Virus record (IMG/VR): IMGVR_UViG_2571042390_000001
Strand: one strand, 5' to 3'
Source of the DNA: a virus
Lineage: Duplodnaviria; Heunggongvirae; Uroviricota; Caudoviricetes
Length of the DNA stretch: 64,000 nucleotides
In this document: positions 6,467-59,708 of the stretch, one piece after another
How the letters are laid out: each line of letters begins with the position of its first letter
Numbering within the stretch: position 1 is the first letter of the stretch
Translations under genes and position numbers: made by a program
The notes under the pieces: generated by a model
Seen by the model: the letters and a program-made list of their open reading frames with translations, nothing else
What the model was told of the DNA's origin: nothing
Database searches by the model: none

Positions 6467-6475
6467 TTTCTAACA
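6467..6475. promoter_or_regulatory. Operator-like motif TTTCTAACA (candidate C1-type repressor site)
   Basis: One of about 15 intergenic copies of the same core; upstream of ORF 6649. Confidence 0.45.
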
Positions 6476-8956: not shown

Positions 8957-9153
8957 TGGACATCATGCAGGCGGTAAAAAAAATCAGGGAAGGACAGGCT
9001 GAAGTGTGCCGCCGTAAAGCATGGAGTGTTGGTGTATGGGCCTGGCCTGATAATTACTCTACTACCGGATGGTTTTGTATTAATGGACTCCAGATCCGGG
9101 AAGTTGATTTATCGACGGCTGATATAGTCGGTAATGATTGGATCGTGACTTGA
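8953..9153 (+). CDS. Small DUF2829 (Tad2-family)-like protein
   Basis: AVKKIREGQAEVCRRKAW and C-terminal ADIVGNDWIVT signature; 4-nt overlap with Rha gene; same domain is fused to Rha in 48514..49455. Confidence 0.5.
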   Translation: MMDIMQAVKKIREGQAEVCRRKAWSVGVWAWPDNYSTTGWFCINGLQIREVDLSTADIVGNDWIVT

Positions 9154-9162
9154 AGCGTGATG

Positions 9163-9186
9163 CCCCGGCCTGGCCGGGGCTTTTTT
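9163..9186 (+). terminator. Rho-independent terminator
   Basis: ccccggcc/ggccgggg stem followed by T6. Confidence 0.65.
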
Positions 9187-9671: not shown

Positions 9672-9822
9672 ATTTTTCTCCCGGTCATGGGTTAATAAGT
9701 AGGCAAACTATGGGGAGTATGTGATTTTGACGGTAGTATCGTCCCCCTGAAAATAACATTCTCCATACCCTCTCAACCGTACCGCATAGCGGAATTTTTT
9801 ACGGTTTAGAGGGGGAAATCCT

Positions 9823-32496: not shown

Positions 32497-33580
32497 GAGC
32501 AATATTTATAAAGATCCGCGCTGGCTGTCGCTGGTGGAGAAATATAAAGACAATTGGGTTCTGGCAGCAAAAGAATTGTTTGATATTGATTTAAGCCACC
32601 AGCAACAACAAATTGTTGAAGCTATACAGCCCAATAATGCAAAAGCTACTGTCACCACTCCGCATGGGATCGGACGACCGCAAGTGCTTGCTGTTATTAG
32701 TACCCTTTATACGATTATGTATCCTGATTCCCGGACAGTAATTGTTTATCCAAAATCAAATGCTTGCAAAAAAGGAATTGTTGCATATGTGTGGCAATGT
32801 TGGGAGGCATTACTGAAAAAACAACCTTTTATCATTGAGTATTTTAAGGTCGGTGATAGCGGTCTGATGTTCAATGAATTTTGGGGAATGTGCTTTTGTA
32901 ACTACCGCCTTAACTATGAAGATAGCATTGCAGGTCACTACGCCGACCATCTGTTATTCATTATTGTGGATTCCGCACATATCAGCGATCGGGCATACAG
33001 TATTGTGTGGGCAAGCATGACTAGTGGTGATTCACGCATATTGCTCACTTCAATTCCGTCACCAGAGGAAATAGGATTTTTTTATGATTCTCATCATGGG
33101 CGTGCTTTAGCTGAAGATAATCCGAGTGGTGCCTATAAAGCCATTAAGCTGAGTGCTGAGGATTCACCATTTATTACCCAAGAATATCTTGATCATTTTG
33201 CCGAAAGGTATGGCGGGCGAAATAGTGATGACTACCGTCGTATGATTCTTGGTGAGTTCCCTGGTATTAGGGAGGCTGTTCTTGAATCAGATATGCCGAA
33301 GACAATGCGCTTTTCGATGCCTGATGGTAGTGAATGGACAATACCATTACGAGTGATAGCCCGGCATCATGCGCAGCACCACGCCAAAAAACATGGCGTC
33401 ACGACATTAGAATGGTTGAAATCGCACACCATTCCACTCTTCACTGCAGATCACAATGCTATCGTTGAGTGGGCAAAAACAATTCCGTGGGAGAATGTCG
33501 CTGAATACGCCCACATGCTAAAACCGCCGAAAGACAGGCAAGAAATTAGCTGGCTGACAGCAGAAAAAATCATTGAGTGA
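32486..33580 (+). CDS. Terminase large-subunit ATPase-domain paralog with degenerate Walker motifs
   Basis: Homologous to PacB-like N-terminal domain (DPRW, HQQQQI, FYDSHH blocks) but P-loop is PHGIGRP and Walker B is IIVDS; no nuclease domain; ATG at about 32486. Confidence 0.55.
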   Translation: MATKSNIYKDPRWLSLVEKYKDNWVLAAKELFDIDLSHQQQQIVEAIQPNNAKATVTTPHGIGRPQVLAVISTLYTIMYPDSRTVIVYPKSNACKKGIVAYVWQCWEALLKKQPFIIEYFKVGDSGLMFNEFWGMCFCNYRLNYEDSIAGHYADHLLFIIVDSAHISDRAYSIVWASMTSGDSRILLTSIPSPEEIGFFYDSHHGRALAEDNPSGAYKAIKLSAEDSPFITQEYLDHFAERYGGRNSDDYRRMILGEFPGIREAVLESDMPKTMRFSMPDGSEWTIPLRVIARHHAQHHAKKHGVTTLEWLKSHTIPLFTADHNAIVEWAKTIPWENVAEYAHMLKPPKDRQEISWLTAEKIIE

Positions 33581-34698: not shown

Positions 34699-34715
34699 AC
34701 TGTTTATTCATACAG
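34699..34715 (-). promoter_or_regulatory. LexA (SOS) box upstream of humD
   Basis: taCTGTttattcatACAGta matches CTGT-N8-ACAG; about 20 bp upstream of humD start. Confidence 0.6.
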
Positions 34716-34802
34716 TATACATTGAAAAGGCATAGTTTGTGAAAGCGGGGTTTGTAGGCGCGCCACGCTGGGGGCTAATCACATTTCTCCCCCATCTTGC
34801 CG

Positions 34803-35437: not shown

Positions 35438-35493
35438 TTTGTAGTAACCAGGGGTACTGCGGGTAGCCAGAACTACAAGCTCACCAGTCATCA

Positions 35494-36309
35494 TTAATAC
35501 CGGCATTCATAGCATGAGTATCTCCACTGTTCATGGTCAAAGCACCAGAATGCTTCCCTGGGCAGATTGTGTTTGTTCATTAGCGCCAGAACTTGCGTAG
35601 GCGTATTCGCGGGAATTTCTGGTAATAAAGCCTTCGCCATTTCATGAACCAACATGGCATCAATGACGCCTAGCGTATGGCCTGCCTTAATCTTTAATGC
35701 AGTTTCAAGATAGCTCCTTTCCAGAGTTGTGCTTACTCTTGGCTTCGGCACCTCTTGTGGATGAGTATCCAGACGGTTGCCAGATTCATAGGCTACCCGC
35801 AGCCAGTGCATGAATGTTTCAGTAGACACACAACCGCAGTCCAAGTCGATTTTTTCGCGTTGTTGCCCCAGCCATTGCTCAAAATTTAACTTATTGGATG
35901 CTTCAAGAGCCTCTTCGTATTGTTTGCGCGAAATTATTTCCGTGTATTCCTCGCGATCAAGGTTACTTATCGGAAGCCTGACCTCAAGGCAAAAATTGCG
36001 CCCACGCGGGCTTTTCGCTGGATCAGAGCCAAAAGCAAAGAAACCATATGATGGTTCACAGCAGTCCTCTCTAACCATGCGACAATCGAGCACATCATCA
36101 GGCCACCCTCCACGCTTTGGCAGCTCCTGCACCAACAAGTCAATCAGCTTTATACTCTCACCGTCTTTGCAGGTTGCTAACGCTATTTGGGCAAGCTCCA
36201 ATACCTCATCTGCCGTGTATCCAGCGCCGTGTCCATACATTTCGATGCGTGCAATAATCTCTGATATGCGAAATTTAGTGATTTTAGTCATAGTTTTATT
36301 TCCTTGCAT
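35494..36309 (-). CDS. Hypothetical protein (271 aa)
   Basis: First gene (3' end) of the minus-strand accessory array. Confidence 0.45.
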   Translation of the reverse strand: MQGNKTMTKITKFRISEIIARIEMYGHGAGYTADEVLELAQIALATCKDGESIKLIDLLVQELPKRGGWPDDVLDCRMVREDCCEPSYGFFAFGSDPAKSPRGRNFCLEVRLPISNLDREEYTEIISRKQYEEALEASNKLNFEQWLGQQREKIDLDCGCVSTETFMHWLRVAYESGNRLDTHPQEVPKPRVSTTLERSYLETALKIKAGHTLGVIDAMLVHEMAKALLPEIPANTPTQVLALMNKHNLPREAFWCFDHEQWRYSCYECRY

Positions 36310-36497
36310 GGTTCGCCTTTACGGCATATAGCTGCACGGTCATTTCTTACATTAACCACGGTCACCGTTCCGTCATCGCATTGAATAACGATGAAAGGGT
36401 GTTCATTCTCTTTTGTGCAATGTTGCTGTTCCCCTGCTATAACAGTGAGGGGAATTAATAAAATAATAATTACTGCGAATTTACTAAATGTTGCCAT
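36288..36497 (-). CDS. Small secreted/membrane protein (69 aa)
   Basis: N-terminal signal-like hydrophobic segment FAVIIILLIPLTVIAG. Confidence 0.3.
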   Translation of the reverse strand: MATFSKFAVIIILLIPLTVIAGEQQHCTKENEHPFIVIQCDDGTVTVVNVRNDRAAICRKGEPCKEIKL

Positions 36498-36521
36498 AGC
36501 AATCTTTCTTTCTGTTTTTCA

Positions 36522-36815
36522 TTATGGTTGAATCCAGTTATCTTCAATAGCAATGCTCAATCTTTGTAACCATTCTGCTAATTTCAGCATTGCTTCTCTT
36601 TCGCTTAAACCACGAGGAAAATCATCAAGCGATATTGTTGGCTTGAAGTTTCCCAAATTATCCATTTCAACGGTCAGATTTTGCTCCAGCACGGTATTCC
36701 TTACGCGGCTATTGTGCCGAAGCAAATATACTGAACGTGATTTATTGGTTTTGTGGTCGAGCTGATATTCGGTAAGTATCATCTGGCTTCCGCCATGATT
36801 ATTACCGCGCCACAT
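36522..36815 (-). CDS. Hypothetical protein (97 aa)
   Basis: ORF in minus-strand array. Confidence 0.35.
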   Translation of the reverse strand: MWRGNNHGGSQMILTEYQLDHKTNKSRSVYLLRHNSRVRNTVLEQNLTVEMDNLGNFKPTISLDDFPRGLSEREAMLKLAEWLQRLSIAIEDNWIQP

Positions 36816-36838
36816 AATTACTCCGTGTTAATTGAAAT

Positions 36839-37141
36839 TTAGCTATTAATCTTCACTTTTATCGCGAACACCTTTACCGGTTTATCACCGAAGTGCGGAT
36901 GTGTGATTGTCTTGATTTCATATCCACCATACGGAACATCAATTCTGCGACTGGAATCGTCGCGCTTCGGATATCCCTTTGTGATAATCAGGCGGTCATA
37001 CTTACGGTTAACGAGGCGCTTATTCCAGTAGTCATTACACAGGCGATACTCTTCCGTTTTATCTCCGCGAATCATGGCATCGAAGTATTCACCTTTGACG
37101 GCAAGTTGCAGGTTAGCCATTACCTCACCTCCAGTCTCCAT
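36839..37141 (-). CDS. ASCH/DUF3850-like protein
   Basis: LQLAVKGEYFDAMIRGDKTEEYRLCNDYW resembles ASCH-type N-terminus. Confidence 0.4.
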   Translation of the reverse strand: METGGEVMANLQLAVKGEYFDAMIRGDKTEEYRLCNDYWNKRLVNRKYDRLIITKGYPKRDDSSRRIDVPYGGYEIKTITHPHFGDKPVKVFAIKVKINS

Positions 37142-37380
37142 ACCGCCTGACCAATCCGGCTGGCATGGGTATCTTTGGATACTGTTCCGTCTTTAGCCAG
37201 CTCCATAAGAATTTTGCGCAAATCTGCCGAGCGCCATTCTTCATCAGGAAATTCCTTCTCCATTGCCAACCGCAGATTCCAGGTTGCTATCGTGAATGGA
37301 TATTCACCGCCGAGAGCTTTCTCTTGTAGGGCAGCACGGGAACGCATCACCTGCAAAACCTTCTCTTTTACATCCATCAT
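37120..37380 (-). CDS. Hypothetical protein (86 aa)
   Basis: ORF in minus-strand array. Confidence 0.35.
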   Translation of the reverse strand: MMDVKEKVLQVMRSRAALQEKALGGEYPFTIATWNLRLAMEKEFPDEEWRSADLRKILMELAKDGTVSKDTHASRIGQAVWRLEVR

Positions 37381-38066
37381 TACGCCTCCTTCGGCGGTTC
37401 TGGTAGCGGCATCCAGTGGGTTACTTCTTTGAGATGCAGGTCTTCGCCATCACCGTCATCCCAAGTGGGATTGCCATCATTAAACCAGTCGCCATATACG
37501 CCGACCTGAGTGTTGGGGATGCTTGGTGGGTAGTTGTTTTTAAAGTCAGCTGCTAACACATAGTATTGTCGCTCTCCCATTTCTGGCATTCGATCACTAC
37601 AGCTTATCCAACCATCCGGAGTTACCGGAGAGTTGGTTGACGTTTCCGCAATTTCCCGAAAATTATTGGTTGACGAATTCGCGTTTTTCCGAAAGTTTCC
37701 GGCATGAAGCATAGCCGCGCGGCAGGCATTCCACCCCTTCACATAACCGAACGCCATCAACTGATCACTCATGGCGGGCAGCATTGTGTGGGTCGTACTG
37801 ATTTCTTCCGGCACTACCGGCGCTGGCGGGGCGATGCGTCCAAGCAACTTATTTACCTCTTTCGCCATCGCGTCATATTTATCTAAATGGCGATTAGCTT
37901 CTAAGCAGACTCGGCGCATCTGATCTGAGTTAACTCGTTTAACTGGATCTGCTTCCAGCGATGCCAGCGCAATCCGTGCCAGTTCCATTTGTTCACCACG
38001 GGTAAGCCCGTTTTCAAGCGGATTTTTAATGAACAATTCAATACGTTCTTTGGTAATAGTGGTCAT
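37380..38066 (-). CDS. DUF551-like protein
   Basis: C-terminal GWISCSDRMPE ... THWMPLPEPP signature; N-terminus shared with 38836..39285. Confidence 0.5.
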   Translation of the reverse strand: MTTITKERIELFIKNPLENGLTRGEQMELARIALASLEADPVKRVNSDQMRRVCLEANRHLDKYDAMAKEVNKLLGRIAPPAPVVPEEISTTHTMLPAMSDQLMAFGYVKGWNACRAAMLHAGNFRKNANSSTNNFREIAETSTNSPVTPDGWISCSDRMPEMGERQYYVLAADFKNNYPPSIPNTQVGVYGDWFNDGNPTWDDGDGEDLHLKEVTHWMPLPEPPKEA

Positions 38067-38076
38067 GTGTTACTCC

Positions 38077-38340
38077 TTAACCCGCAGTGCTTTCAACTGA
38101 TGAGGGGAACAAAATCTTTTCATCAAACCCTGCATTCATATCATGAACAGCAACACACCAATCCATCGACGAACGATTATCAAGAGTCTCCATGATTTCA
38201 TCCATGCGGCGCAGGTCATACAGGTAAATGCTTTTATCGCCAATGGTGTAAAAACCAATTTTTTTCGGTGATGGACAGCGATCAAGAACGTCCTGTAATT
38301 CGCTCAACCATGCTTGTTCTTTTTTTGTCAAAGTTGCCAT
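38077..38340 (-). CDS. Hypothetical protein (87 aa)
   Basis: ORF in minus-strand array. Confidence 0.35.
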   Translation of the reverse strand: MATLTKKEQAWLSELQDVLDRCPSPKKIGFYTIGDKSIYLYDLRRMDEIMETLDNRSSMDWCVAVHDMNAGFDEKILFPSSVESTAG

Positions 38341-38341
38341 A

Positions 38342-38872
38342 TCACTCTCCTTTGATGCGAATGCCAGTGGTACTCATTCTCCTGATTTCCCAGAGCACAC
38401 GAGGAACACCACCGTTTCCGACCGGATCGCGTTTACTCCGCAGGGCGACGCTTGATTCCGCCCAGCTTTTTCTTGGAGGAAGCTCTTTCACACGAACAAA
38501 ACCAGCTGCGCGGAGAGATGCTCCTGATTCATCTGCCTGGGTGTACGTAATACAACGTTGATAACCCATAGCCTTTGCTGCCCGCCAGACAGCACCATAA
38601 AGCGCGCTGTTAGCGTTGCGTTCTCCTGTGGTACATGTGCGATTTACTTCAAGCGTTAATCCATCGTCCAAATGTCGTGCAACAGGTCTACCGGCTGTCG
38701 CCACACCTATCAATTCTCCGGCATCATTTCTCAGACCAATGCTGAATTTATGCCCCACTGGTGGTTTATTGTGTCGGTGATGTCTGGATATAAACGCCTT
38801 CGCAACACGAAGAGTAACCGGTGAAATTTGCATTCTCACTCTCCTTTGATGCCAATGTTTACAGACTGGCAA
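38342..38872 (-). CDS. Hypothetical protein (up to 176 aa; start uncertain)
   Basis: ORF in minus-strand array; internal Met may be true start. Confidence 0.35.
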   Translation of the reverse strand: MPVCKHWHQRRVRMQISPVTLRVAKAFISRHHRHNKPPVGHKFSIGLRNDAGELIGVATAGRPVARHLDDGLTLEVNRTCTTGERNANSALYGAVWRAAKAMGYQRCITYTQADESGASLRAAGFVRVKELPPRKSWAESSVALRSKRDPVGNGGVPRVLWEIRRMSTTGIRIKGE

Positions 38873-39285
38873 GCCTCTTTGAGCACCCAGTCAACAGCGT
38901 CTTTCCATGCTCCGGTTTCGACTGGCGGATTCTCACGCTTAACTTGTTCATAGAAACGCACGGCTTTAACCAGTCCTTCTGATGTCACCGGGACTGGCGG
39001 GGCAGTGAATAAGGCCTGAATCTCATAGCTCGGCCTGTCGTTGCAATCCTCTTTTGTCGGTACATATTTCCAGTCACCAACCCACGGCTCCCCCTGAGAG
39101 TCCGTAACGCCTTTTTTCACGTAGCGATATCGCCACGCGACTGGCTCTGCTTCCAACGATGCCAGTGCGATACGAAACACATTGGCAAGCAGACTGCTTG
39201 AAGATTGGTTATCGTGCGCCGGGTCGCTCAGGAAACCAGTGATGAATGATTTAATTTCCGCGTTTTCTCTGGTAATAGTGGTCAT
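38836..39285 (-). CDS. Hypothetical protein sharing N-terminal module with DUF551-like protein
   Basis: MTTITRENAEIKSF ... FRIALASLEAEP parallels MTTITKERIELFIK ... ARIALASLEADP. Confidence 0.4.
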   Translation of the reverse strand: MTTITRENAEIKSFITGFLSDPAHDNQSSSSLLANVFRIALASLEAEPVAWRYRYVKKGVTDSQGEPWVGDWKYVPTKEDCNDRPSYEIQALFTAPPVPVTSEGLVKAVRFYEQVKRENPPVETGAWKDAVDWVLKEACQSVNIGIKGE

Positions 39286-39542
39286 TTATTAATCCTCAAA
39301 ACTTTATGCCCGGGCGCAAAAGCACGTGTTTTGTCTTTGCTTATTCGCCAGCCATCCTTGCGCGCCTCTTTTGCACAGCCAGCCCATGACGTACCGATAT
39401 ACTCACCGAAGTCTGGCGTTTGATATTTACCATTTGTACACTGGCGACAATCACAGTAGAGATGCATGGTGTAACTTGCAGCGATAGCCACATCACTCTC
39501 CTTTAGTACGCAAGTGGTTTTTCCAGCGGTTTTGCGCCGCAC
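39282..39542 (-). CDS. Small Cys-rich hypothetical protein
   Basis: ORF in minus-strand array. Confidence 0.3.
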   Translation of the reverse strand: MRRKTAGKTTCVLKESDVAIAASYTMHLYCDCRQCTNGKYQTPDFGEYIGTSWAGCAKEARKDGWRISKDKTRAFAPGHKVLRINK

Positions 39543-39685
39543 TGGGCTTTTTGCAACAACTGTTACCCATCACCCCGCAACACCCCGCCAACCTCACTCG
39601 TCTGTTACTAATCCTCAACCAGCGCCAGATCCCAACACCGTTTCTGCGAGCTAACAGAATTTTTGCTTTACGGTTTTTCATCGCT

Positions 39686-40351
39686 TTACTCTTCTTCCTC
39701 ACGCCCAAGATATGAAAGAGATGTGACTGCTGTTGCATGGAAACCACAAACCTTGCTAAGTGCGCTTTTAAACTCTTCAAGGTCGGATTGCGATTTGATT
39801 CTGAAAGGTGACTGCGCAATCCCGGACATGGTAATGCCACTAACATTGCTCACTGCGTTGTAGTGATATACGTGCCTATTAGCTGATTGAGTCACGCGTT
39901 CCTGTTGGCTGTTTATATTGGCATCCTGCCCTGTGGTGGTCTTCTCCAACTCTTCGATACGTTCAGCCATCGCAGCACACTCTTCAAAGTTGCTTGATGC
40001 TTTTCTCTCCCATTCGGCGCATTGTTTTCCAAGCTCTGCAATCAGCTTGTCTTTGCCTTCAAGCTCAACACGCAGCTTCCCTACCGTTAGCGCAATATCC
40101 TCGTTCTCCTGGTCGCGAGATTTGATGTATTGCTGGTTTCTTTCCAGTTCATCCAGTAATGCCAAAGCAACCTTTGGATTAAAGGCAGCAATAAATTCAG
40201 CGTTGTTTTTCAGAACGTGTTGCGCAATGGCCTGACCACTTAGTCGGACCTTATAACCACGTGCGCCACGGTGTGGTTTATATGAGTCCCAGTCTCCCCA
40301 CGTTGCTTTCTCTGCCGCCTCACGCAGTGCCTGGTAATTAATTTTGCTCAC
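39686..40351 (-). CDS. Ead/Ea22-like protein
   Basis: N-terminal YQALREAAEKAT motif typical of lambdoid Ea22-like proteins; central coiled coil. Confidence 0.5.
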   Translation of the reverse strand: MSKINYQALREAAEKATWGDWDSYKPHRGARGYKVRLSGQAIAQHVLKNNAEFIAAFNPKVALALLDELERNQQYIKSRDQENEDIALTVGKLRVELEGKDKLIAELGKQCAEWERKASSNFEECAAMAERIEELEKTTTGQDANINSQQERVTQSANRHVYHYNAVSNVSGITMSGIAQSPFRIKSQSDLEEFKSALSKVCGFHATAVTSLSYLGREEEE

Positions 40352-40883
40352 TGACTGCCTCCTTCTTAATCAGTTTACACAGGTGCTCCACAGCCACAGA
40401 GAGTGCATCCACCGCTCGTTTATCCAGACGCGGGGCCAGAGCAAGCAGTTCATTTATTGCAATCTGAATACCATGCTCCGCCGCCAGCGCCGCGCGATTG
40501 CTCTCCAGCTCTGCAATGCGCTGTTTTGCGGTATCAAGTTCAATCGATAATTTTTCCAACTGCTCTTTATGCTTCTTGTATTCCTGATATGCGTGCCAGG
40601 ACTGACCTTTGCGCACACTATCAGTAATATCAGTAATCTGTTCTGGTGTTAGAGTGGTCAGTGGCTGTGCTGGGAAAATCAGCACTTTCCCGGAATCCCA
40701 ATCAAAACCAGCGTGAATTGACTGAACCTCAACTGAGGGTGTTGAACCAATGCTGCCAGGCGAATGAACAACGATCGTTACATCCATATCGCGACGATGG
40801 CTGTGGTTGTTGGACAAAATACGATTCAACAAAATACGATTCACCAACTCAGAAAATTTGGAGAATTTCATGCGGAGCCTCAA
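40338..40883 (-). CDS. Hypothetical coiled-coil protein (181 aa)
   Basis: ORF in minus-strand array. Confidence 0.35.
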   Translation of the reverse strand: MRLRMKFSKFSELVNRILLNRILSNNHSHRRDMDVTIVVHSPGSIGSTPSVEVQSIHAGFDWDSGKVLIFPAQPLTTLTPEQITDITDSVRKGQSWHAYQEYKKHKEQLEKLSIELDTAKQRIAELESNRAALAAEHGIQIAINELLALAPRLDKRAVDALSVAVEHLCKLIKKEAVSEQN

Positions 40884-41290
40884 TATGCAAAATAGACCGT
40901 TGCCACGCCGTTATAGTGATCAAACGATACGGCGTTTACTTCATAACTGGCCGGGAGCTTCGAGCCAAGAACGTATCCGGGCCACGTTTTCCATGGAATT
41001 TCTCTATTCTCACTACCCCCATATACCGTACATCCAAGTGAACCTACAGCTTCATTAGAACGCGTGCCGCACGTTATGAATCCCAGATTTTGCTTACTGC
41101 TCTTAATGGTGATTGAGTGAACGCTGGCTGATGCATTAGCAGCACGCTGTGCCTGTTGGTTTGCGATATTCGCAGAGTTCGCAGCAGCTACAGCAGCCGT
41201 AGTCGCGGCGGTAGAGGCTACAATAGCTGCTGAAGCATGCACTTGTTGGATATTCACCAACAATGCCGCGATAAAAATCATCTTCTTCAC
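40880..41290 (-). CDS. Secreted hypothetical protein with signal peptide
   Basis: MKKMIFIAALLVNIQQVHA signal-like N-terminus. Confidence 0.4.
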   Translation of the reverse strand: MKKMIFIAALLVNIQQVHASAAIVASTAATTAAVAAANSANIANQQAQRAANASASVHSITIKSSKQNLGFITCGTRSNEAVGSLGCTVYGGSENREIPWKTWPGYVLGSKLPASYEVNAVSFDHYNGVATVYFAY

Positions 41291-42009
41291 TTGTCAGCTC
41301 CTTTGCGAATCTGTTCCGCCCATTCTTCAAGGGATTTCTCCGCATATTCACCAGACAGGCCATCAATCGGATGCGCTTCATTAGCCAACTCTTCTTTCGC
41401 TGACAAAATCATGCGTGTAACGTCGAAAACTTCACGCAAAGACTTATTGATAAATCCGTGATTGAACGCAGCAGCAAGACGGCTGGCGGTATAGTTAACT
41501 CCCTCGTTGCGTGCTTCCGCACGAATTTCAGCCAGAAAAGCATCGGTGGCTGGCATATTTCCTGTTGCCTTCATGGCCTCCAAAATAACCAGAACGCCAT
41601 CTCGCCCAACCTCCTCAGCGATAACCTCGGTGTTGTCGCCAACAACATCGCAGAATGCCTGAACTGCCTTACGAGCCAGTTCATTCTCCGCCGCCAGCGC
41701 CGCGAGATTAGTCTCAAGCTCTGCAATTCGACACATAGCATCAATATTTGTGTCCTCCAGGCGCTTAATTTCACCAAGAAGCTCCAGTGCAACCTTTGGG
41801 TTGAACGCGGCAACATAACGAGCGTTGTTCTCTGCATTTTTCTGTCCATCAAAGCCGGTCCATTTGATAACGTCTTCACATCGTTCATCACCGGGCGTGT
41901 GCACCGCATAAGTACCAGTATCCGTCGAAATAAATGCGACCCATTCGTCTGGTGTTGCCTTTTCTGCCGCCTCACGCAGTACCTGATAGTCAATTGTCAT
42001 TCTCGCCAT
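41287..42009 (-). CDS. Ead/Ea22-like protein (paralog)
   Basis: YQVLREAAEKATPDEW and AAFNPKVALELL motifs shared with 39686..40351. Confidence 0.5.
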   Translation of the reverse strand: MARMTIDYQVLREAAEKATPDEWVAFISTDTGTYAVHTPGDERCEDVIKWTGFDGQKNAENNARYVAAFNPKVALELLGEIKRLEDTNIDAMCRIAELETNLAALAAENELARKAVQAFCDVVGDNTEVIAEEVGRDGVLVILEAMKATGNMPATDAFLAEIRAEARNEGVNYTASRLAAAFNHGFINKSLREVFDVTRMILSAKEELANEAHPIDGLSGEYAEKSLEEWAEQIRKGADK

Positions 42010-42641
42010 CCTTCACAGTTGTAATCACGACAGCCTTCAAAATCATATGGGCTGTACTGCCAGGTTATTTTTCCGCAATGCGGACAATTCCAACGCACCT
42101 TCCCGCTTCGCGACTTCTTTCTTCTGTTCTGCTCTTTCAACCAGTCAGGCATGACCAAACCTGCGCCCTGAACCATTGTTCTGCGGTTAAAGTTATTGAT
42201 ATTGAACGTCCGGCGCTTTGCTGCATCAGCAATGGAAAATGGCAACCAAACTATTCCTGGTTCGTTTTTGTTGGCGAAGCTAAAGATGGTCGCTTTACTG
42301 AAGTCATCTGTTGGCAATCCACCGTGTTGAAGCCAGTAAACATCGTTGCCGTTCCAGCTACCTTTTTTGTAGGCCACATACTCAGTGCAATCTGACTCAA
42401 TCAGGCTTTCTGTAGGGATGTACTGGCAATCAACGTGCCACACAGCCATTGCATCCACACTATCGGCACAAACAGGCTGATCGATATCTCGCCCACAATT
42501 CCAGGCTTTTTGGGCTTCTTCCAGCGTGTAAATATGAGCGCGATCGATATCAGAACTGTAACCATTGCCGTTATGGCAATGGAATGAGGCGTTATTACCC
42601 ACAGTTTCACGCAAGCACATCATGTAAAAGCGGTTATTCAC
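41997..42641 (-). CDS. Cys-rich hypothetical protein (214 aa)
   Basis: C-terminal CPHCG ... C ... C cluster. Confidence 0.4.
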   Translation of the reverse strand: MNNRFYMMCLRETVGNNASFHCHNGNGYSSDIDRAHIYTLEEAQKAWNCGRDIDQPVCADSVDAMAVWHVDCQYIPTESLIESDCTEYVAYKKGSWNGNDVYWLQHGGLPTDDFSKATIFSFANKNEPGIVWLPFSIADAAKRRTFNINNFNRRTMVQGAGLVMPDWLKEQNRRKKSRSGKVRWNCPHCGKITWQYSPYDFEGCRDYNCEGWRE

Positions 42642-42927
42642 TGGTTGCCTCCGCTTCCCACGTTTTCAGACTTTCACCACAGAATGGGCAAAATGAAACT
42701 CGAATAGGCGATTTAGAAAATTCACCAGACCGCAGCATGATCAGGTCTTGTGAATGAATTAATTCATGGTTATAGATTTTGTATTTCAGCAGACCTTTCC
42801 GCGTCGTGTATTCAGCATCCTGCTCCAGAGATTGTGCCAACGCCGCGCACGGTTCTATTTTTTTGTCATTAATCAAACAAGTGGAGATTCTGCACTTTGC
42901 AGCTCCGTCACCATTACCTTGACTCAT
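42634..42927 (-). CDS. Small Cys-containing hypothetical protein
   Basis: ORF in minus-strand array. Confidence 0.3.
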   Translation of the reverse strand: MSQGNGDGAAKCRISTCLINDKKIEPCAALAQSLEQDAEYTTRKGLLKYKIYNHELIHSQDLIMLRSGEFSKSPIRVSFCPFCGESLKTWEAEATSE

Positions 42928-42940
42928 TGCATTGCTCCCA

Positions 42941-43936
42941 TCAGTTATTGAACGTGATCACTCCGCGCTCAATGGCGAAGTCGAAAAGCTGGTTAGCGGC
43001 TACGTAAAGGCGTATGCCATGTGCTTTTTCCCATGCCCGGACATCGTTTTCTGCGCTTCTGGCGCAGTCATCGCAAAGAGGAACAGTCCAGCGGTCGTGT
43101 TCGTTTAACGAGCGGGCGCGGTACATGAATGGGTGATTAACCTTGCCGCCGCAGCCTACACACGGGCGAGACACCACAAACCGGAGATAAGCCGGGCTTT
43201 TTCCGAGTAAGGTTTTTGGACGGCGCATATATAGGAGGCCAGAATCTTCATCGACGGACAGATTGACGATCTGCTCTGCGGAAATATCCACCAGCTCGCG
43301 GGTACTATGCTCCCAAGTAATATCCGACTCTTTCAGAGTGCCGGTAGGGATTTCAGTTTTTGGCTGACAAAATGCAATGCGACCAGCTTCATCAGGCAGT
43401 TCGTCTTTAAGATTCCGGCGAATGGCCCAAAAGGTGAGTTCAACCATGCTCAGATCGCGATCTGGCGGAAGTTTTAACTCGCTGGCAGCCCAGTTCATAA
43501 TCCAGTTGGCGCGATTCAGTGACAGTTGGTCTTCCAGCTTGCCGTATCCCTTCATCATGTATTCCGCATCATGCTTCCAGCACAGGCGAACGGCAGAACC
43601 GTTATAGAAATGGGTGGTTAGCTGGTGGCTGCAATCGCGCTTATCATGCACCTGGCAATCGTGAATGTTGGTGCTAACCCAGTGAACGAGAGAATCCTCA
43701 CCACCTAACGCGTTAAATACGCGCTCACTTTGAAAAAAGGGTGCCAGTGACTGGTTGGCAACCAGTGAATAATTCAGGTCAACGACACCATCAGGGGTGT
43801 TTTCAGCCTGTTCACGCGGCAATGGGGATATAAGAAAACGGCGTCCTGCGCCGATGTAATTGCTGGTGGGCTTATCTACAGGAAAGACAGCCACACCAGT
43901 TTCATTTACGACATATGGGGTGATTATTGCACTCAT
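42941..43936 (-). CDS. Hypothetical protein (331 aa) with C-terminal Cys/His cluster (zinc-finger or HNH-like)
   Basis: CVGCGG ... NHPF ... VPLCDDC; paired operator-like motifs upstream. Confidence 0.45.
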   Translation of the reverse strand: MSAIITPYVVNETGVAVFPVDKPTSNYIGAGRRFLISPLPREQAENTPDGVVDLNYSLVANQSLAPFFQSERVFNALGGEDSLVHWVSTNIHDCQVHDKRDCSHQLTTHFYNGSAVRLCWKHDAEYMMKGYGKLEDQLSLNRANWIMNWAASELKLPPDRDLSMVELTFWAIRRNLKDELPDEAGRIAFCQPKTEIPTGTLKESDITWEHSTRELVDISAEQIVNLSVDEDSGLLYMRRPKTLLGKSPAYLRFVVSRPCVGCGGKVNHPFMYRARSLNEHDRWTVPLCDDCARSAENDVRAWEKAHGIRLYVAANQLFDFAIERGVITFNN

Positions 43937-43978
43937 AATGCATACCGACTCTGTTTTGTTCCGATCGGTAAAATAATA

Positions 43979-44007
43979 TGTTAGAAAACTAAAATCAATG
44001 TTCTAAC
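43979..44007. promoter_or_regulatory. Paired operator-like half-sites (TGTTAGAAA ... TTCTAAC) upstream of ORF 42941..43936
   Basis: Two inverted copies of the core spaced about 13 nt apart. Confidence 0.45.
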
Positions 44008-44164
44008 GTGATTTTGAGTGCGTAAATGATTTGATCAGACTTTAAGCTGCCCTCCCTTCACCTGCATTAGCGTCAGATTTCCGCTAAAAACCGCGCCCGT
44101 GTCTAGTTTCTATAGCCAGAACCATCAATACGGCTATATAAATTCACTTCATGCAGAGCCTGGG

Positions 44165-44476
44165 TCATGCGGCAACCTTCTCACGCAGCCAGATACAAAC
44201 CGGACCATCTTCAGTGTCATGAATAGAGCCAACAAACCAGCCTTCACCCTCTGGTCGCTCCGGTTCCCAGGCGGCAATATCGGGACCAGCTGCGTCCAGA
44301 TCAAAATCATCTTCATCCATACTGCGAATAGTCCACTGAAGATTATTTTCCTTCATCCAGGCGTCAAATTCCTCAGTGGAAATATATTCACGACCTGCGC
44401 AAAACTTCTCATACTCCGGATGTGTCCAGCAGCCATATTCATCACGTTCTACCGGCATTTCTTTAATTGTGTTCAC
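44165..44476 (-). CDS. Hypothetical protein (103 aa)
   Basis: ORF in minus-strand array. Confidence 0.35.
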   Translation of the reverse strand: MNTIKEMPVERDEYGCWTHPEYEKFCAGREYISTEEFDAWMKENNLQWTIRSMDEDDFDLDAAGPDIAAWEPERPEGEGWFVGSIHDTEDGPVCIWLREKVAA

Positions 44477-44697
44477 TCTTCATCCTCCAAATCAGCAACC
44501 GCGTCCATCACATCAGAACCGCGAATAACTTCAAAAGCGCGGCAGGCCATTTGAAATACCCGTTGCTCTTGCGGGTGCGGAGACTCCCAATATTTGAAGC
44601 CTGGGCGATGCGTGTACCCCATCATGGAATAAAAATCGCCAGCAAGTTCAATCGCGGCATCAACAAGTTCGCGATTTGTCATCGTCTGTTCTGTCAT
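44473..44697 (-). CDS. Hypothetical protein (74 aa)
   Basis: Overlapping start/stop with neighbours. Confidence 0.3.
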   Translation of the reverse strand: MTEQTMTNRELVDAAIELAGDFYSMMGYTHRPGFKYWESPHPQEQRVFQMACRAFEVIRGSDVMDAVADLEDEE

Positions 44698-44969
44698 TTG
44701 GTTTTCTCCTGTCTGAACATCACTATCATCAGGTCGCCTTTTGTCGCTATTCTGGCTGTTGTGCCTGGTTCAATGCGGCTAAGTTCAAATGCGTCATAGA
44801 ACGCTTCTAATGCCTTCTGGCGTAGTTCCTGTTTGCGCCGTTTTTTCCACTCTTTTAGGAAAATGGAACCCAGCCATCGCCAGGTACGGGACATGATGTA
44901 AAGCCAACCAAGAAGTGCCAGACCGGTATTTAGGGCCGTATCGAGCGTTATCGTGGTGTCGATATTCAC
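44694..44969 (-). CDS. Small membrane hypothetical protein
   Basis: Predicted TM segment LALLGWLYIM. Confidence 0.3.
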   Translation of the reverse strand: MNIDTTITLDTALNTGLALLGWLYIMSRTWRWLGSIFLKEWKKRRKQELRQKALEAFYDAFELSRIEPGTTARIATKGDLMIVMFRQEKTK

Positions 44970-45214
44970 TGTGGTGGTTCCTGCTTTTCTGCCTTCAATA
45001 CCATGCGAGAACCATCATCCAGCTCCCAATTAATTTCACCGCCTTCTGCCATGACCAGATGCCAGACGAGTTGAGCGGCCTCGTTGGTTACATCACGACC
45101 GCGATCATTGCCAACACGACGTTTTGTTCCATCCCCTAAGTCACGCATTTTTGCCAACACGATGGTTTTTGATAGCGGTGAAAAACCAAGCTGTAGTCGT
45201 GCGGTATTACTCAC
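44966..45214 (-). CDS. Hypothetical protein (82 aa)
   Basis: ORF in minus-strand array. Confidence 0.3.
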   Translation of the reverse strand: MSNTARLQLGFSPLSKTIVLAKMRDLGDGTKRRVGNDRGRDVTNEAAQLVWHLVMAEGGEINWELDDGSRMVLKAEKQEPPQ

Positions 45215-45217
45215 TGT

Positions 45218-45721
45218 TTACCTTCCTTTTCTAAGCTGTTCGGCGATATCTTCGAGAACGCCATCAGAGAATGAGCGGTCAAAATCGCCTTCCCGCGCAT
45301 TAGCCATAAACTCAGTAGAGGTAAGAATCATCCGGGCAATATCCGCGGCGTTCTTCGCAGTATCATCAATAAAACCAGCTTCCCAAGCAGCCAGCATCCT
45401 GTTCGCCACAAAGTAAGCGCCCTCCTTGCGTGCTTCAGTCTTCACTTCATCCAGGAAAGTGTCGGTCGCAGGAGTGGTTTTTTGTGGTGATAGGGCGAGA
45501 CGAATTGTTTCGAGAGCTGGATCTATTTCCACTGTTGGCACCTTGATAAAGCCAAGCTGCACGCCATTCATAATGAACGTGCGGCGATCCTCACATATCG
45601 CATTCAGTCTCGCATTCTCCGCCGCCAGCGCAGCACACGCTTTCTCAAGTCGGGAAATTTCCGTTACATACTCAGCGTTACGCTCTGCCAGTTGTGCTGG
45701 CGTTAAACCTTCAGACTTCAT
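45218..45721 (-). CDS. Hypothetical protein sharing C-terminal domain with Ea22-like paralog
   Basis: TDTFLDEVKTEARKEG ... ARMILTSTEF parallels the C-terminus of 41287..42009. Confidence 0.4.
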   Translation of the reverse strand: MKSEGLTPAQLAERNAEYVTEISRLEKACAALAAENARLNAICEDRRTFIMNGVQLGFIKVPTVEIDPALETIRLALSPQKTTPATDTFLDEVKTEARKEGAYFVANRMLAAWEAGFIDDTAKNAADIARMILTSTEFMANAREGDFDRSFSDGVLEDIAEQLRKGR

Positions 45722-46028
45722 GTACTCTCCTTTCGAAATAAACGTACTGATTAATCATGCCCAGGGGCATTTCGAGTTTTTCCGCGATCTCACGGCGGGG
45801 AACACCACACTGATGAAGCTGCCGCGCCAGTTCTATATCGCTCTGCCGGAATTTGGCTGACGGATGAAAGTCTCCTTTCAGAATCATGCTGATCCCCAAC
45901 TCCCGCGCTTTAGTCCTGACGGCATCACCGGTACGACCGATCAGCTTCCCAATACTCTCGACCGTCATAGTTCCGGCGCACTGGCGGAGTATCATGATTT
46001 CTGCCCTTCCCCATCCCCGCCAGCTCAC
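45711..46028 (-). CDS. Hypothetical protein, possible HTH
   Basis: ORF in minus-strand array. Confidence 0.35.
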   Translation of the reverse strand: MSWRGWGRAEIMILRQCAGTMTVESIGKLIGRTGDAVRTKARELGISMILKGDFHPSAKFRQSDIELARQLHQCGVPRREIAEKLEMPLGMINQYVYFERRVHEV

Positions 46029-46663
46029 GCAGAACTCCTTCTAACCAAAAGAACGCCATCTTCAGAAACAACGTTGCAGGACTTCAGGTAATTCATTGCC
46101 TCTTTCGGTAATGGATTCTTTGGATCGGCGTTTGCCAGGGATTTCGATAACCTCATGATAAATTTGATCATTACCTTCTGGCGGAGCTTGTGCTCATGAG
46201 ATAAAGACAGGTAATAGGAAATGGTATGGGCTAAACGCTCACGAAGCTGTTCTGTGCCGTGATATACAGCAGCGATATCACGCAGTGCATTGACCAGTTC
46301 CCGGTAAATATGCGGAGCAACCTGGCATTCAATGTTGGTTGGTGACTCATAAATTACAGTCAGCCCCAGCTTTTCAGCCAGCGCGTGCTCTGCGCGAGCA
46401 CCAACCGATTCTTCCCATCGATTGAGCAAGTAGATCGCATCAGCAGAACGCACCATTGCCAGGCAAATATCCATGTATTCACTCTGACAAAGGCCACCAG
46501 GTAACATAGCTGGATTCAGAACGATATGCCCTTCAGCCATCAACTCGCTCGCTTTCGCATTAAACGCCGCACGGTTGTAATCTGGATAACCAGTCATCGG
46601 CCCCGCGATGTAAATTTTCAAAACACGTTTCACCATCAAAATTTCCCCAGAATCGTGACGCAA
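46025..46663 (-). CDS. DUF4406-like (nucleoside 2-deoxyribosyltransferase-like fold) protein
   Basis: KIYIAGPMTGYPDYN motif near N-terminus. Confidence 0.45.
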   Translation of the reverse strand: MRHDSGEILMVKRVLKIYIAGPMTGYPDYNRAAFNAKASELMAEGHIVLNPAMLPGGLCQSEYMDICLAMVRSADAIYLLNRWEESVGARAEHALAEKLGLTVIYESPTNIECQVAPHIYRELVNALRDIAAVYHGTEQLRERLAHTISYYLSLSHEHKLRQKVMIKFIMRLSKSLANADPKNPLPKEAMNYLKSCNVVSEDGVLLVRRSSA

Positions 46664-46830
46664 AACATAAGCACTGCGAAAAGCTCAATACCAAGCTCAA
46701 GTAGCGCCAACGCCCCGAAAAACAACACATAGAACAGGCCAATCTCATTCACAGATGGCTGGTGGATCGCACTTAAAGCTATAAGCATCATGTCCTCCAA
46801 ACAGTTATCAGGAATGATATTAATGTTTTG

Positions 46831-46860
46831 TGTTAGAAAATCAATTTTGAATATCTAACC
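46831..46860. promoter_or_regulatory. Paired operator-like motifs in the divergent region upstream of ref
   Basis: TGTTAGAAA at 46831-46839 plus ATCTAACC at about 46853-46860; P1 ref is C1-controlled. Confidence 0.45.
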
Positions 46861-46908: not shown

Positions 46909-47487
46909 ATGCAGAAACAGAGTTATTGGGAGAAACAGAGACAAAAAGCCATGCAAAAATTGGCTGACCCGGCCTGGCGAGAGGAACAAAGGGCAAAGCG
47001 CCTTCAACAAGCTCAACGCCAGCAGCAGCGAGCGAGAGAAAAAGCCGCATCGCCTGAATATCGGCAAAAGAAAATTGAAAAAGCAAAGCAATATGAACAG
47101 CGGAGAAAAGATAAAGCTGTATCCGCTCCGTCCAAAAAAACACGCACGTCACGCGGCCTGAAAGGCAGATCACTCACAGCCGATGAACGCCGGATACAGA
47201 CCGCTATCGGTGCTCTCCCCTGCATTGCCTGCCATATTCACGGGCAACATAGCCCAGTGGTATCCCTGCACCATATCTTCGGGAGAACGGCAGAGAACGC
47301 GCATAAATATGTCCTCCCTTTGTGTAAATGGCACCACCAGTACGCAGCGCCAGCCGAGGTCAGAGAACAATATCCCTGGCTGGTCCCTGTTCATGCTGAC
47401 GGAAAAATAGGCGGAAAAGCAGATTTCATGCGGCACAATGCCGATGAAATGACGTTGTATCAGATGGCGATTGAGTTGATAAATTAG
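46909..47487 (+). CDS. ref: Ref-like HNH endonuclease (recombination enhancement function)
   Basis: Highly charged N-terminus followed by Cys/His core ALPCIACHIHGQH ... LPLCKWHHQ; operator-like motif upstream. Confidence 0.6.
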   Translation: MQKQSYWEKQRQKAMQKLADPAWREEQRAKRLQQAQRQQQRAREKAASPEYRQKKIEKAKQYEQRRKDKAVSAPSKKTRTSRGLKGRSLTADERRIQTAIGALPCIACHIHGQHSPVVSLHHIFGRTAENAHKYVLPLCKWHHQYAAPAEVREQYPWLVPVHADGKIGGKADFMRHNADEMTLYQMAIELIN

Positions 47488-47488
47488 T

Positions 47489-47497
47489 TTTCTAACA
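47489..47497. promoter_or_regulatory. Operator-like motif TTTCTAACA
   Basis: Immediately after ref stop, upstream of immI-like module 2. Confidence 0.4.
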
Positions 47498-48091
47498 TTT
47501 TAAGTTGAATTGAAAAACTCTCCGATGTACATTCACTACCGATTGGCACACCGGTCAACTTTTTGAGACAAACTGTTTAGTTTTTCGTATTATTGCCTCC
47601 GCCATACCTATGGCGGTGCAATATAGGTGGCTGAAAAGCCCCCGTTGACTCACGGTGTTCCAGCCTTTATTGCGCCGCCACCAGACCGTGGAACAGTCGA
47701 TGGCGGCTCCGAAAGCAAGGAGTCACAACACTATGAACAACTACAGTCTTTTCCCATCACTCGTCTTCCACCACTCACGCGATAATCTGCATTCTTTGCT
47801 CGCGCCGGGGGTGTCAAAATGACTGTTCGCTACCTCAACTTTCAAATCAAGAACATTACTGGCGGTTGCTATGACTGGTTTGTCACTCTCGGAAAAGAAG
47901 TGATCACCGGGAAGCTGGATGAAGTGAAAGCTAAAGCAATGGCCTACGCCTGCAAGCAAGTCAGGAAGAAATCCGCCAAAGCATAAAATACTGACTGTTG
48001 CGCCCTGGCATTATCGTGGGGTATATTTCTACGGCACCTTAGAAAAACGGGTGCCGGGATTGGAACCCCGGATAATGTCAAAGGCGACACA

Positions 48092-48113
48092 GACGCCGAA
48101 CGCGTCTTTTTTT
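48092..48113 (+). terminator. Rho-independent terminator
   Basis: gacgc/gcgtc stem followed by T7. Confidence 0.5.
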
Positions 48114-48149: not shown

Positions 48150-48260
48150 CTCAGAGATCAATGGTAGTGCTGGCTGGGCTGCCGAAAGGCAGGCCGGTTC
48201 CCTTTGACGCCGGTAGTTCCAACCCAGTCAGTGCTACCGCCATTGAGATTGGAACCTCAC
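48150..48260 (+). ncRNA. Candidate c4-like antisense regulatory RNA, copy 2
   Basis: Segments at about 48187-48191 and 48200-48206 complementary to RBS region of icd-like gene 2 (about 48280-48294). Confidence 0.35.
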
Positions 48261-59664: not shown

Positions 59665-59708
59665 CCATTTGTGTTAGATAATTAACGCGTATTTTCTAAC
59701 ACAAATGG
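59665..59708. promoter_or_regulatory. Palindromic operator-like site upstream of hrdC-dmt
   Basis: ccatttgtgttaga ... tctaacacaaatgg perfect inverted repeat containing the core motif twice. Confidence 0.55.

Follow-up and report, generated by a model that had tools for sequence, protein, structure and literature searches.

Why should a long run of small genes of lambdoid early-region type separate the recombinase gene from ref in a relative of phage P1, in which the two genes lie close together? The question is raised by the tailed-phage record IMGVR_UViG_2571042390_000001 (IMG/VR; Caudoviricetes), of which a stretch of 64,000 nucleotides (nt), hereafter the window, was analysed. In a preliminary description of this DNA, positions 35494-46663 were regarded as an accessory gene array inserted between cre and ref of a P1-like element. 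Our analysis indicated that the array is a mosaic combination of a known type, namely the early accessory region of D6/P1-family phage-plasmids, which is variable and gated by a repressor. The main value of this result is that it settles the annotation of the 11-kb block, which is a normal variable cargo region and not a special insertion; moreover, the lineage backbone could be separated from the exchangeable cargo, and explicit recombination joints were recognised.

The identity of the element was established by megablast comparisons. The best phage match of the region and its surroundings was phage D6 (94-98% identity over the backbone genes), and the other top matches were a large set of ~90-kb non-mobilizable plasmids of E. 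coli, Salmonella and Shigella. The tyrosine recombinase (28635-29663) is only 41% identical to P1 Cre and was therefore classed as Dre-type. It is followed by dut and other small genes, doc/phd, the LexA-boxed humD, the minus-strand array, ref and an immI-type C4 RNA/icd/ant region. Ref, a RecA-dependent nuclease (46909-47487, plus strand; Pfam RecA_dep_nuc, 5e-35), is encoded divergently from the array, and the operator region is common to both. The backbone around the array (a D6-type c1 at 27203-28240 on the minus strand, dre, phd/doc, humD, ref and C4 RNA/icd/ant) is thus of D6 type, and the element is D6-like (P1 family, subgroup 2) and not P1.

The distance between the recombinase gene and ref is 17.2 kb, in agreement with the ~17 kb given previously, compared with 0.6 kb in P1. 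The array can be called inserted only relative to P1, since the annotated D6 record and five related plasmids keep the same order (dre ... phd/doc, humD ... array ... pdcB ... ref). The array also contains the D6-lineage anchors in lineage order (orf88-DUF4406-HTH ... orf96/95/DUF4752 ... [ppp] pdcB; HTH, helix-turn-helix), divergent from ref, with ppp present as a deleted remnant. This layout is standard across the D6 lineage and therefore not a private insertion in one element; D6-type plasmid prophages usually have a variable cargo region of this kind, and that of the window is ordinary for the family. That a lambdoid segment was inserted recently, in a single event, between cre and ref of this one element might be suggested by the fact that at least 80% of the array was found in no sequenced record, and by the 90-97% identity of its distal cargo with the DNA of chromosomal prophages. 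Such an event is nevertheless very unlikely, mainly because the architecture is lineage-wide: anchors and operators are alike in D6 and all five relatives examined, and the head block of the array is intact in 111 plasmids. Furthermore, the mosaic consists of many small exchanges and not of one block, and the GC content of the array (0.43-0.51) resembles that of its flanks, with no step at the borders and no foreign-island signature.

With start codons refined by means of annotated homologues, PHROG alignments and Shine-Dalgarno (SD) sequences, the array comprises 26 minus-strand genes, from 46788 down to 35494, so that the single minus-strand run of about 25 small genes recognised earlier was counted nearly correctly. 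Its lower end was retained, while the upper end was moved to 46788, since a gene for a membrane protein of 50 amino acids (aa), a homologue of D6 orf88, had been missed; the start of the neighbouring DUF4406 gene was corrected to 46636. The genes are tightly packed: 24 of the 25 junctions are no longer than 29 nt, 13 of the junctions are overlaps, and nearly all genes are preceded by an SD sequence. They do not form one unit. An operator located inside the array, with the ppp remnant on one side and pdcB on the other, divides it into two gated units, the first of 8 genes plus the deleted ppp (46788-44165) and the second of 18 genes (43936-35494). A consensus scan found promoter-like and terminator-like sites inside the units no more often than expected from shuffled sequences, and the same scanner gave nothing useful at the unit starts or ends.

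Two operator-like motifs, reported previously at 46831-46860 and 43979-44007 and taken as a sign that the array is under the element's repressor, proved to be real. They correspond to putative 28-bp bivalent D6-type operators located at 46832-46859 (GTTAGAAAATCAATTTTGAATATCTAAC), within the divergent array/ref control region, and at 43980-44007 (GTTAGAAAACTAAAATCAATGTTCTAAC), upstream of pdcB. The underlying pattern, GTTAGAAAA-N13-TCTAAC, has 3 matches in the window and none in 100 shuffles. Each bivalent site is composed of two inverted 17-mers that overlap by 6 bp, with their conserved halves facing outward (28 bp in total), a geometry which is exactly that of the curated P1 bivalent operator Oc1ab. 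The half-site TGTTAGAAAA (at most one mismatch) occurs 19 times in the window against 5.2 expected, and 11 of the 13 exact GTTAGAAA sites are intergenic, in a window that is 88% coding. D6-type sites precede c1 and ref, adjoin dre and span the ref stop codon, and Oc1, Oref and Omat of P1 are correspondingly placed. The site that overlaps the ref stop codon is monovalent (47480-47496, minus strand); P1 Omat occupies the same position with the consensus on the opposite strand.

Comparison between elements led to the same conclusion. The array/ref site is invariant in five elements except for one end base, and the operator upstream of pdcB is found at the same place in D6, pGMI14-002_2 and all five relatives. 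Among the loci compared, all six D6-type elements carry the D6-type motif at the same three positions, and the P1-lineage loci lack it throughout; the P1 17-mer shows the reverse pattern, being confined to P1 loci. The site sequence (TGTTAGAAAAnTAA... in the window, ATTGCTCTAATAAATTT in P1) therefore co-varies with the type of C1, the D6-type and P1 proteins being distant homologues (21% identity). No window site matched the P1 operator consensus with up to 3 mismatches, so this element does not use P1-type operators. The sites nonetheless have the form of P1-family operators (asymmetric 17-bp sites, monovalent or as a bivalent 28-bp site, overlapping a promoter) in a sequence unlike the P1 consensus, which is expected because the C1 is heteroimmune.

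At both array sites a putative -35 hexamer, TTGATT, lies inside the operator on the minus strand. The candidate promoters, recognised by eye, are TTGATT-16 nt-TAATAT for unit 1 (46817-46844, minus strand; 8 of 12 consensus positions, the scanner cutoff being 9 of 12) and TTGATT-17 nt-TATTTT for unit 2 (43970-43998, minus strand). A -35 hexamer within an operator is the arrangement expected for occlusion by a repressor, if these predicted promoters are indeed used. The best inference, by analogy with P1, is that both motifs are operators of the D6-type immunity repressor; the enrichment of the motif, its geometry and position, and its co-variation with the D6-type C1 lend strong support to control of the array by the element's repressor, as originally proposed.

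This bears on the possibility that the array, or parts of it, are morons, i.e. are transcribed in the plasmid-prophage state and serve the host or the prophage, for example in superinfection exclusion or in surface modification by small membrane or secreted proteins. Membrane-like or signal-like N-termini are present in three to four products (genes 1, 6, 13 and 25), lambda Ea22 is described as pro-lysogenic (PMC10834534), and the weakness of the predicted promoters leaves room for other inputs. We nevertheless consider expression of this kind unlikely, because the promoters appear to be embedded in operators: the putative -35 hexamer falls within an immunity-repressor-type operator at the start of both units. 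In addition, further promoter-like sites within the units did not exceed chance, and, according to the curated P1 record, C1 represses the analogous operon via OpmgT.

Further copies of the motif were observed outside the array. A third 28-bp bivalent operator (59673-59700) forms part of a longer palindrome, CCATTTGTGTTAGA...TCTAACACAAATGG, and precedes a gene for a 301-aa protein by 15 nt; the 742-aa open reading frame (ORF) that follows this gene resembles, by eye, a fused Dcm+Dam methyltransferase (P1 dmt-like). Additional intergenic candidates for monovalent D6-type operators were noted at 6474, 7667, 18612, 19861, 20017, 28267 and 29677, and one of the monovalent copies precedes c1 by 27 nt, while another follows shortly after dre. 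As a set, the intergenic monovalent copies would define the D6-type C1 regulon. The candidate D6-type C1 operator consensus, (A/G)TGTTAGAAA(A/T)nTAA..., in its mono- and bivalent forms, would allow the early genes of roughly 100 sequenced D6-like plasmids to be predicted. No earlier description of the D6-type operator was found in our literature search, which did not cover the D6 genome paper or the Dre/D6 pac-c1 paper.

We then asked how much of the array belongs to the D6 lineage. In local alignments the best single relative covers 73% of the array, and five relatives (D6 and four plasmids) jointly cover 97.5%. The blocks are very unevenly distributed in PLSDB. The head block (HTH gene, DUF4406 gene, membrane peptide gene and operator) was detected in 111 plasmids, all with at least 80% coverage, and the pdcB block in 203 plasmids, 59 of them at this coverage. 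The middle and distal blocks matched 558 and 754 records, respectively, and were intact in only 2 and 0 of these. Pieces of the array were also found in 4161 of 5426 complete E. coli genomes (9353 chromosomal places), none of which carries 80% or more of it; in a sample taken down the ranking, the matches to chromosomal prophages concentrate on ~36.8-42.9 kb and the DUF4752 gene. Among the 754 records matching the distal cargo (35494-39685), 256 are plasmids typed as conjugative, so that some modules also circulate outside phage-plasmids and prophages.

Judged from this conservation, about a third of the array is D6-lineage backbone, and the remainder is cargo held in common, piecemeal, with chromosomal lambdoid prophages. 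The resulting picture is one of conserved anchors with two cargo slots, one between the DUF4752 and HTH genes and the other downstream of pdcB and the 97-aa gene. Since about a third is lineage backbone, the idea that the array might be a conserved backbone of P1-like phages with structural functions, which would have contradicted its accessory nature, is partly touched upon by our data; what is conserved is not, however, structural. A morphogenetic or structural role might be read from the annotation of neighbouring genes in D6 and P1 (pmgU and pmgT-V) as putative morphogenetic, as well as from the conserved third itself. Such a role is the least probable of the explanations considered, given the variability of the region: gene content differs among all of the relatives, and pmgU is missing here. 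Moreover, no PHROG structural category was matched, and the P1 homologues are nonessential, ppp, pdcB, pmgT-V and upfN/O of P1 having been scored as such together with lambda ea22 (PMC10695390). Eight highly variable regions have been listed for P1-like phage-plasmids, and the P1 equivalent, pmgT-humD, is among them (PMC9603915).

The array proteins themselves are mosaic. Modules common to several members, proposed earlier as an indication of domain shuffling, were confirmed by BLASTP: the N-termini of the two Ead/Ea22-like proteins (Ead1 and Ead2) are 43% identical, the C-terminus of Ead2 matches the 167-aa product of gene 4 (32% over 155 aa, E 1e-20), and the DUF551 protein and a 149-aa protein have N-termini that are 41% identical (the 'MTTIT...ARIALASLEA' module). 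Several array proteins match 6-18 PHROG families in a piecewise manner. At the DNA level, we identified ten families of short direct repeats. The 49-nt repeat D1 is present in three copies (40472-40520, 41682-41730 and 45613-45661) within sequences coding for Ead-type coiled coils, at mosaic breakpoints. Repeats D2 (38327-38363, 38821-38857 and 39478-39514) and the related D3 (38046-38080, 38320-38354 and 39265-39299) are gene-junction sequences, made up of a stop codon after '...KGE' that overlaps an AAAGGAG SD sequence and the next start ('..KGE* AAAGGAGAGTGA ATG' in D2), and of an SD sequence with 'MTTITKE' after it. Repeats D4-D6 and D8 lie in Ead-type coding modules, and D7 in the common N-terminal module.

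Breakpoints were defined as the 24 unique ends of alignment blocks of at least 400 bp between the window and five relatives, and were counted as coinciding with a repeat when within 15 nt of a copy. Fourteen of them fall at internal repeats (13.7% expected, binomial P=4e-7) and 8 at gene boundaries (9.1% expected, P=9e-4). A clear example is the block 40472-41553, which contains the gene for a 136-aa protein with a signal-peptide-like N-terminus and has D1 and D5 at its ends; pGMI14-002_2 and pKOr024_2 carry this block in the other unit, where the window has the other copies of D1 and D5. The pattern fits homologous recombination at short conserved stretches, judging from where the block ends fall. 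Recombination of this kind is the classical explanation of lambdoid mosaicism. An integron-like cassette array was considered and rejected, as neither attC-like inverted repeats nor an integron integrase was found; the array has no inverted repeats of 20 nt or longer, its junction repeats are stop-SD-start coding junctions, and the sole recombinase nearby is Dre, 6 kb away.

Taken together, these observations make it very probable that the array is the variable early accessory region of a D6-type phage-plasmid, organised as two leftward, repressor-gated polycistronic units with exchanged lambdoid cargo. Unit 1 would start at a promoter whose -35 hexamer lies inside the 28-bp bivalent operator shared with the divergent ref, and a second promoter-operator pair, similarly designed, would serve unit 2, of which pdcB is the first gene. 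D6-type C1 would occupy the sites in the plasmid prophage and keep both units silent, and on induction or infection both would be transcribed as early genes, many of them probably translationally coupled. The genes for the membrane peptide, the DUF4406 and HTH proteins, orf96/95/DUF4752 and pdcB would act as lineage-backbone anchors. The slots between and after them would hold dispensable cassettes of lambdoid exo-xis/nin type (Ead/Ea22, DUF551, ASCH-like, eaa, XF1762 and small Cys-rich or secreted proteins), which may pass by homologous recombination to and from sister plasmids and resident lambdoid prophages, the joints being the stop-SD-start sequences at gene junctions and the Ead or N-terminal module sequences. 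We infer that C1 is the binder, that the promoter hexamers function and that expression is early lytic, and that the cargo probably serves DNA or nucleotide modification, recombination, regulation and possibly anti-restriction.

Several points weigh against this interpretation. The promoter hexamers are weak (8/12) and were not called by the consensus scanner, the repressor acting at the D6-type sites is taken to be C1 by analogy, and the sites could instead be bound by the array's own HTH protein (gene 3) or by another factor. Searches for intrinsic terminators were negative both at the distal end (35438-35493) and in the interval that separates the two units, and the limits of the units are thus set by the operators only. 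Breakpoints shared by descent do not count as separate events, and the block ends given by BLAST have a bias towards modules that are repeated. Finally, the functional hint for the cargo is limited to the XF1762 protein as Mom-like, and this likeness failed a pairwise test against Mu Mom.

A more active form of exchange may also be envisaged, in which the array would be a repressor-gated cassette library and Ref and PdcB, produced on induction, would stimulate short-homology exchange with lambdoid prophages at the junction and coiled-coil repeats. The idea arises because the anchors flanking the cargo slots are recombination nucleases, and because Ref is divergently co-regulated from the same bivalent operator. 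We regard it as improbable; if it were true, undescribed factors acting against restriction or defence, e.g. the XF1762 protein, would probably be present among the cargo.

The individual genes, all on the minus strand, are described in the order of their predicted transcription. The preliminary assignments of two Ead/Ea22-like paralogs and of DUF551-like and DUF4406-like proteins were upheld by Pfam, both small Cys-rich proteins and products whose N-termini are hydrophobic or signal-like do occur, and, as stated before, most members have no assigned function according to Pfam, PHROG and NCBIfam searches, the sole named NCBIfam match being XF1762. The lambdoid early-region character of the genes is likewise evident, and at the DNA level they agree to 90-97% with segments of Stx, phiV10 and other prophages; in addition, the array carries the P1-backbone homologues pdcB and the ppp remnant.

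Unit 1 begins with the 50-aa hydrophobic membrane protein homologous to D6 orf88 (gene 1, 46636-46788; phrog_8890, 3e-35), preceded by the SD sequence GGAGG. Gene 2 (46025-46636) encodes the DUF4406 protein, which has an N-terminal domain like nucleoside 2-deoxyribosyltransferases and a C-terminal extension (Pfam 1e-33; phrog_5781, 1e-101; phrog_355, 4e-43). The 94-aa product of gene 3 (45711-45995) is an HTH DNA-binding protein (phrog_323 'transcriptional regulator', 8e-28; weak HTH matches in Pfam), the homologues of which carry the annotation 'DNA-binding protein'. Gene 4 (45218-45721), whose 167-aa product has the C-terminal module in common with Ead2, matches PHROGs 14548, 614 and 368. 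It is followed by genes for a DUF7446 protein (gene 5, 44966-45214; Pfam 6e-18) and a DUF4752 protein with one hydrophobic segment (gene 6, 44694-44969; Pfam 2e-41), and by two genes for acidic proteins, of 74 aa (gene 7, 44473-44697; phrog_4132, 4e-42) and 103 aa (gene 8, 44165-44476; phrog_1372, 8e-54). The latter, a homologue of D6 orf96 according to the D6 alignment, closes the unit.

The conserved anchor of unit 2 is the PdcB homologue (gene 9, 42941-43936; Pfam DUF968, 4e-45; phrog_96 HNH endonuclease, 5e-104), which is 38% identical to P1 PdcB over its full length and combines an Orf-like domain with an HNH zinc finger, as in the DUF968 family, in which an Orf-like DNA-binding domain is fused to an HNH zinc finger (PMC4118853). 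The presence of HNH-type nucleases (PdcB in the array and Ref adjoining it), together with the fact that variable regions of phage-plasmids often carry defence systems (PMC10879196), might point to an anti-phage defence island protecting the host of the phage-plasmid. This is highly improbable in view of the family content, since both the sizes and the families of the genes are those of phage early regions. PADLOC, applied to the ten largest proteins, detected no known defence system and returned two marginal single matches (E ~1e-3, 15-16 bits), and control by a lytic repressor would be the opposite of what a prophage-encoded defence needs. For the host-takeover or anti-defence role that such arrays had been suggested to play, a single candidate was recognised, the XF1762-family protein, whose likeness to Mom comes from profile matches.

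Downstream of pdcB lie genes for a 97-aa Cys-containing protein of the P7 upf87.4 / D6 orf99 type (gene 10, 42634-42927; phrog_4030, 7e-41; 5 Cys) and a 214-aa protein with a zinc-ribbon-like C-terminal Cys cluster (gene 11, 41997-42641; phrog_2457, 7e-119; 10 Cys; weak zinc-finger matches in Pfam). These are followed by the gene for Ead2 (gene 12, 41287-42000; Pfam Ead_Ea22, 3e-20). Gene 13 (40880-41290; phrog_8805, 1e-85) encodes the 136-aa protein, which is probably secreted, as judged by its signal-peptide-like N-terminus (MKKMIFIAALLVNIQQVHA/SAA). Gene 14 (40338-40871) is a 177-aa chimera, with PHROG matches to phrog_6026 in its N-terminal part and an Ead-type coiled coil; it overlaps the next gene by 14 nt, and the identical stretch in p702_18_3 is flagged as an incomplete gene by NCBI. 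Gene 14 is probably a recombination scar. Next comes the gene for Ead1 (gene 15, 39686-40351; Pfam Ead_Ea22, 3e-30).

Between the Ead1 gene and gene 17 we identified gene 16 (39493-39681), the second gene missed in the earlier count, which exactly fills an apparent gap of 194 nt and encodes a very basic 62-aa CC..CC protein (17 K+R), 53% identical to D6 orf101 (E 2e-20). Its stop lies 1 nt upstream of the GTG start of the next gene. It had no ORF of its own in the program-made list, its frame being part of a 117-aa ORF (39493-39846), and the corresponding stretch of pGMI14-002_2 (L002 12899-13092) is without an annotated gene. The neighbouring gene 17 (39282-39491; phrog_926, 6e-36) has an AAGGAG SD sequence and specifies a 69-aa Cys-rich protein of the D6 orf102 / phiV10 gp52 type. 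The 149-aa product of gene 18 (38836-39285; phrog_660, 1e-55) carries the 'MTTIT..' N-terminal module. Gene 19 (38342-38833) firmly belongs only to NCBIfam XF1762_fam (5e-61): it matched phrog_1384 'Mom-like' (1e-42), the Pfam Mom model gave 22.7 bits (cutoff 27.1), and pairwise comparison with Mu Mom revealed no significant similarity (E=0.25), so that any likeness to Mom would be remote and at the profile level.

The distal part of the unit starts with a gene for an 87-aa protein (gene 20, 38077-38340; phrog_1714, 2e-50), followed by that of the DUF551 protein, again with the 'MTTIT..' module (gene 21, 37380-38066; Pfam DUF551, 1e-19; piecewise matches to 13 PHROG families), and by one for an 86-aa 'eaa'-type protein (gene 22, 37120-37380; phrog_2814, 4e-52), the pKOr024_2 homologue of which is named 'eaa protein'. 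The 93-aa product of gene 23 (36839-37120; phrog_625, 2e-49) had been described as ASCH-like, a name that NCBI's annotation pipeline also gives to near-identical homologues, while its match to Pfam ASCH (PF04266) is sub-threshold (E=0.035; 15.2 bits, cutoff 21.2). Gene 24 (36522-36815; phrog_1258, 1e-48) encodes a 97-aa protein. The 69-aa product of gene 25 (36288-36497; phrog_20764, 2e-50), with 4 Cys and a strongly hydrophobic N-terminus (maximum hydropathy 3.09, residues 7-21), is putatively secreted or membrane-anchored. The array ends with gene 26 (35494-36291), coding for a 265-aa multi-module protein with piecewise matches to 8 PHROG families; the 127 nt encoding its C-terminus have no match in any of the five relatives. 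Sequence searches of the PDB with the ASCH-like, XF1762 and DUF4406 proteins gave no significant match, and no functional literature on the cargo families of the array was found in our literature search. The DUF4406, HTH, membrane peptide, PdcB and XF1762 genes are conserved, uncharacterised early genes suitable for functional screens.

Among known systems, the closest counterpart of the array is orf88-orf103 of phage D6, located between ref and pmgU (MF356679 / NC_050154; Gilcrease & Casjens 2018), which is alike in position, orientation and both operators. The anchors orf88, DUF4406, pdcB and orf96/95/94 are common to the two, and the DNA is 92-97% identical over 35% of the array. Unlike D6, the window lacks pmgU and DUF4014, and its distal cargo is different (XF1762, DUF551, ASCH-like, eaa, 214-aa zinc-ribbon-like and secreted-type 136-aa proteins). 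A further difference concerns ppp, encoding a lambda-type Ser/Thr phosphatase, which is intact in D6 and most relatives. In the window only a 134-nt remnant is left (44035-44168, minus strand), owing to an internal deletion of 559 bp (junction 44105/44106) that corresponds in alignment to positions 10549-11107 of D6 and 9121-9679 of p702_18_3; no obvious microhomology was seen at the junction.

The nearest sequenced relatives are pKY1497_2 (AP019805) and p702_18_3 (CP074704), which are 99.2-99.9% identical to the window over 63-66% of the array. The ppp deletion is shared with pKY1497_2. Each of the two plasmids lacks a different part of the distal cargo, and neither contains the whole combination.

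In P1, the operon behind OpmgT (Op88), known as 'variable region 8' (pmgT-humD; PMC9603915), likewise consists of repressor-gated, nonessential and highly variable small genes beside hot/humD/phd-doc, and its P1-lineage variants carry the same cargo modules (EaA/DUF551, ASCH-like) behind this operator. However, the P1 operon is far from ref, with pdcB and ppp elsewhere, whereas the array adjoins ref and includes both. The same families, often as near-identical DNA, are also found in the lambdoid exo-xis ('ea') and nin-type regions (lambda ea22; Stx phages; phiV10 gp46-gp54, where the modules follow the replication genes), which are similarly built of small, overlapping, nonessential, mosaic genes exchanged at gene boundaries. 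Unlike these regions, the array resides in a P1-family plasmid prophage, between humD and ref and not in the exo-xis or P-Q interval, is interleaved with P1-backbone pdcB and ppp, and appears to be controlled by a C1-type operator and not by lambdoid pL/N or pR.

Some additional features were observed in the vicinity of the array. Upstream of humD there is, as in P1, a perfect LexA box, CTGTTTATTCATACAG (34700-34715; 34700-34743 with the promoter), which overlaps a good promoter (TTCACA-18-TATACT). LexA control of the array was considered and rejected, since this single LexA box of the window belongs to humD and lies outside the array. Between an isaA-like gene and doc there is a large plus-strand ORF (32195-33580) that strongly matches phrog_5902, a family of unknown function, and weakly a PHROG of the terminase large subunit (2e-9); it is missing from D6 and present in pGMI14-002_2 and pKY1497_2. 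At a permissive Rfam threshold no RNA family was detected inside the array, all matches being confined to the region 3' of ref. These comprise a strong C4 antisense RNA (48157-48244, plus strand; 77 bits), a second, C4-like copy below the threshold (47606-47685; 40 bits against 45) and an isrK-like RNA (48034-48112; 61 bits). As the segment 47606-48244 lies upstream of icd/ant, it may be regarded as an immI-type region, possibly with a duplicated antisense RNA.

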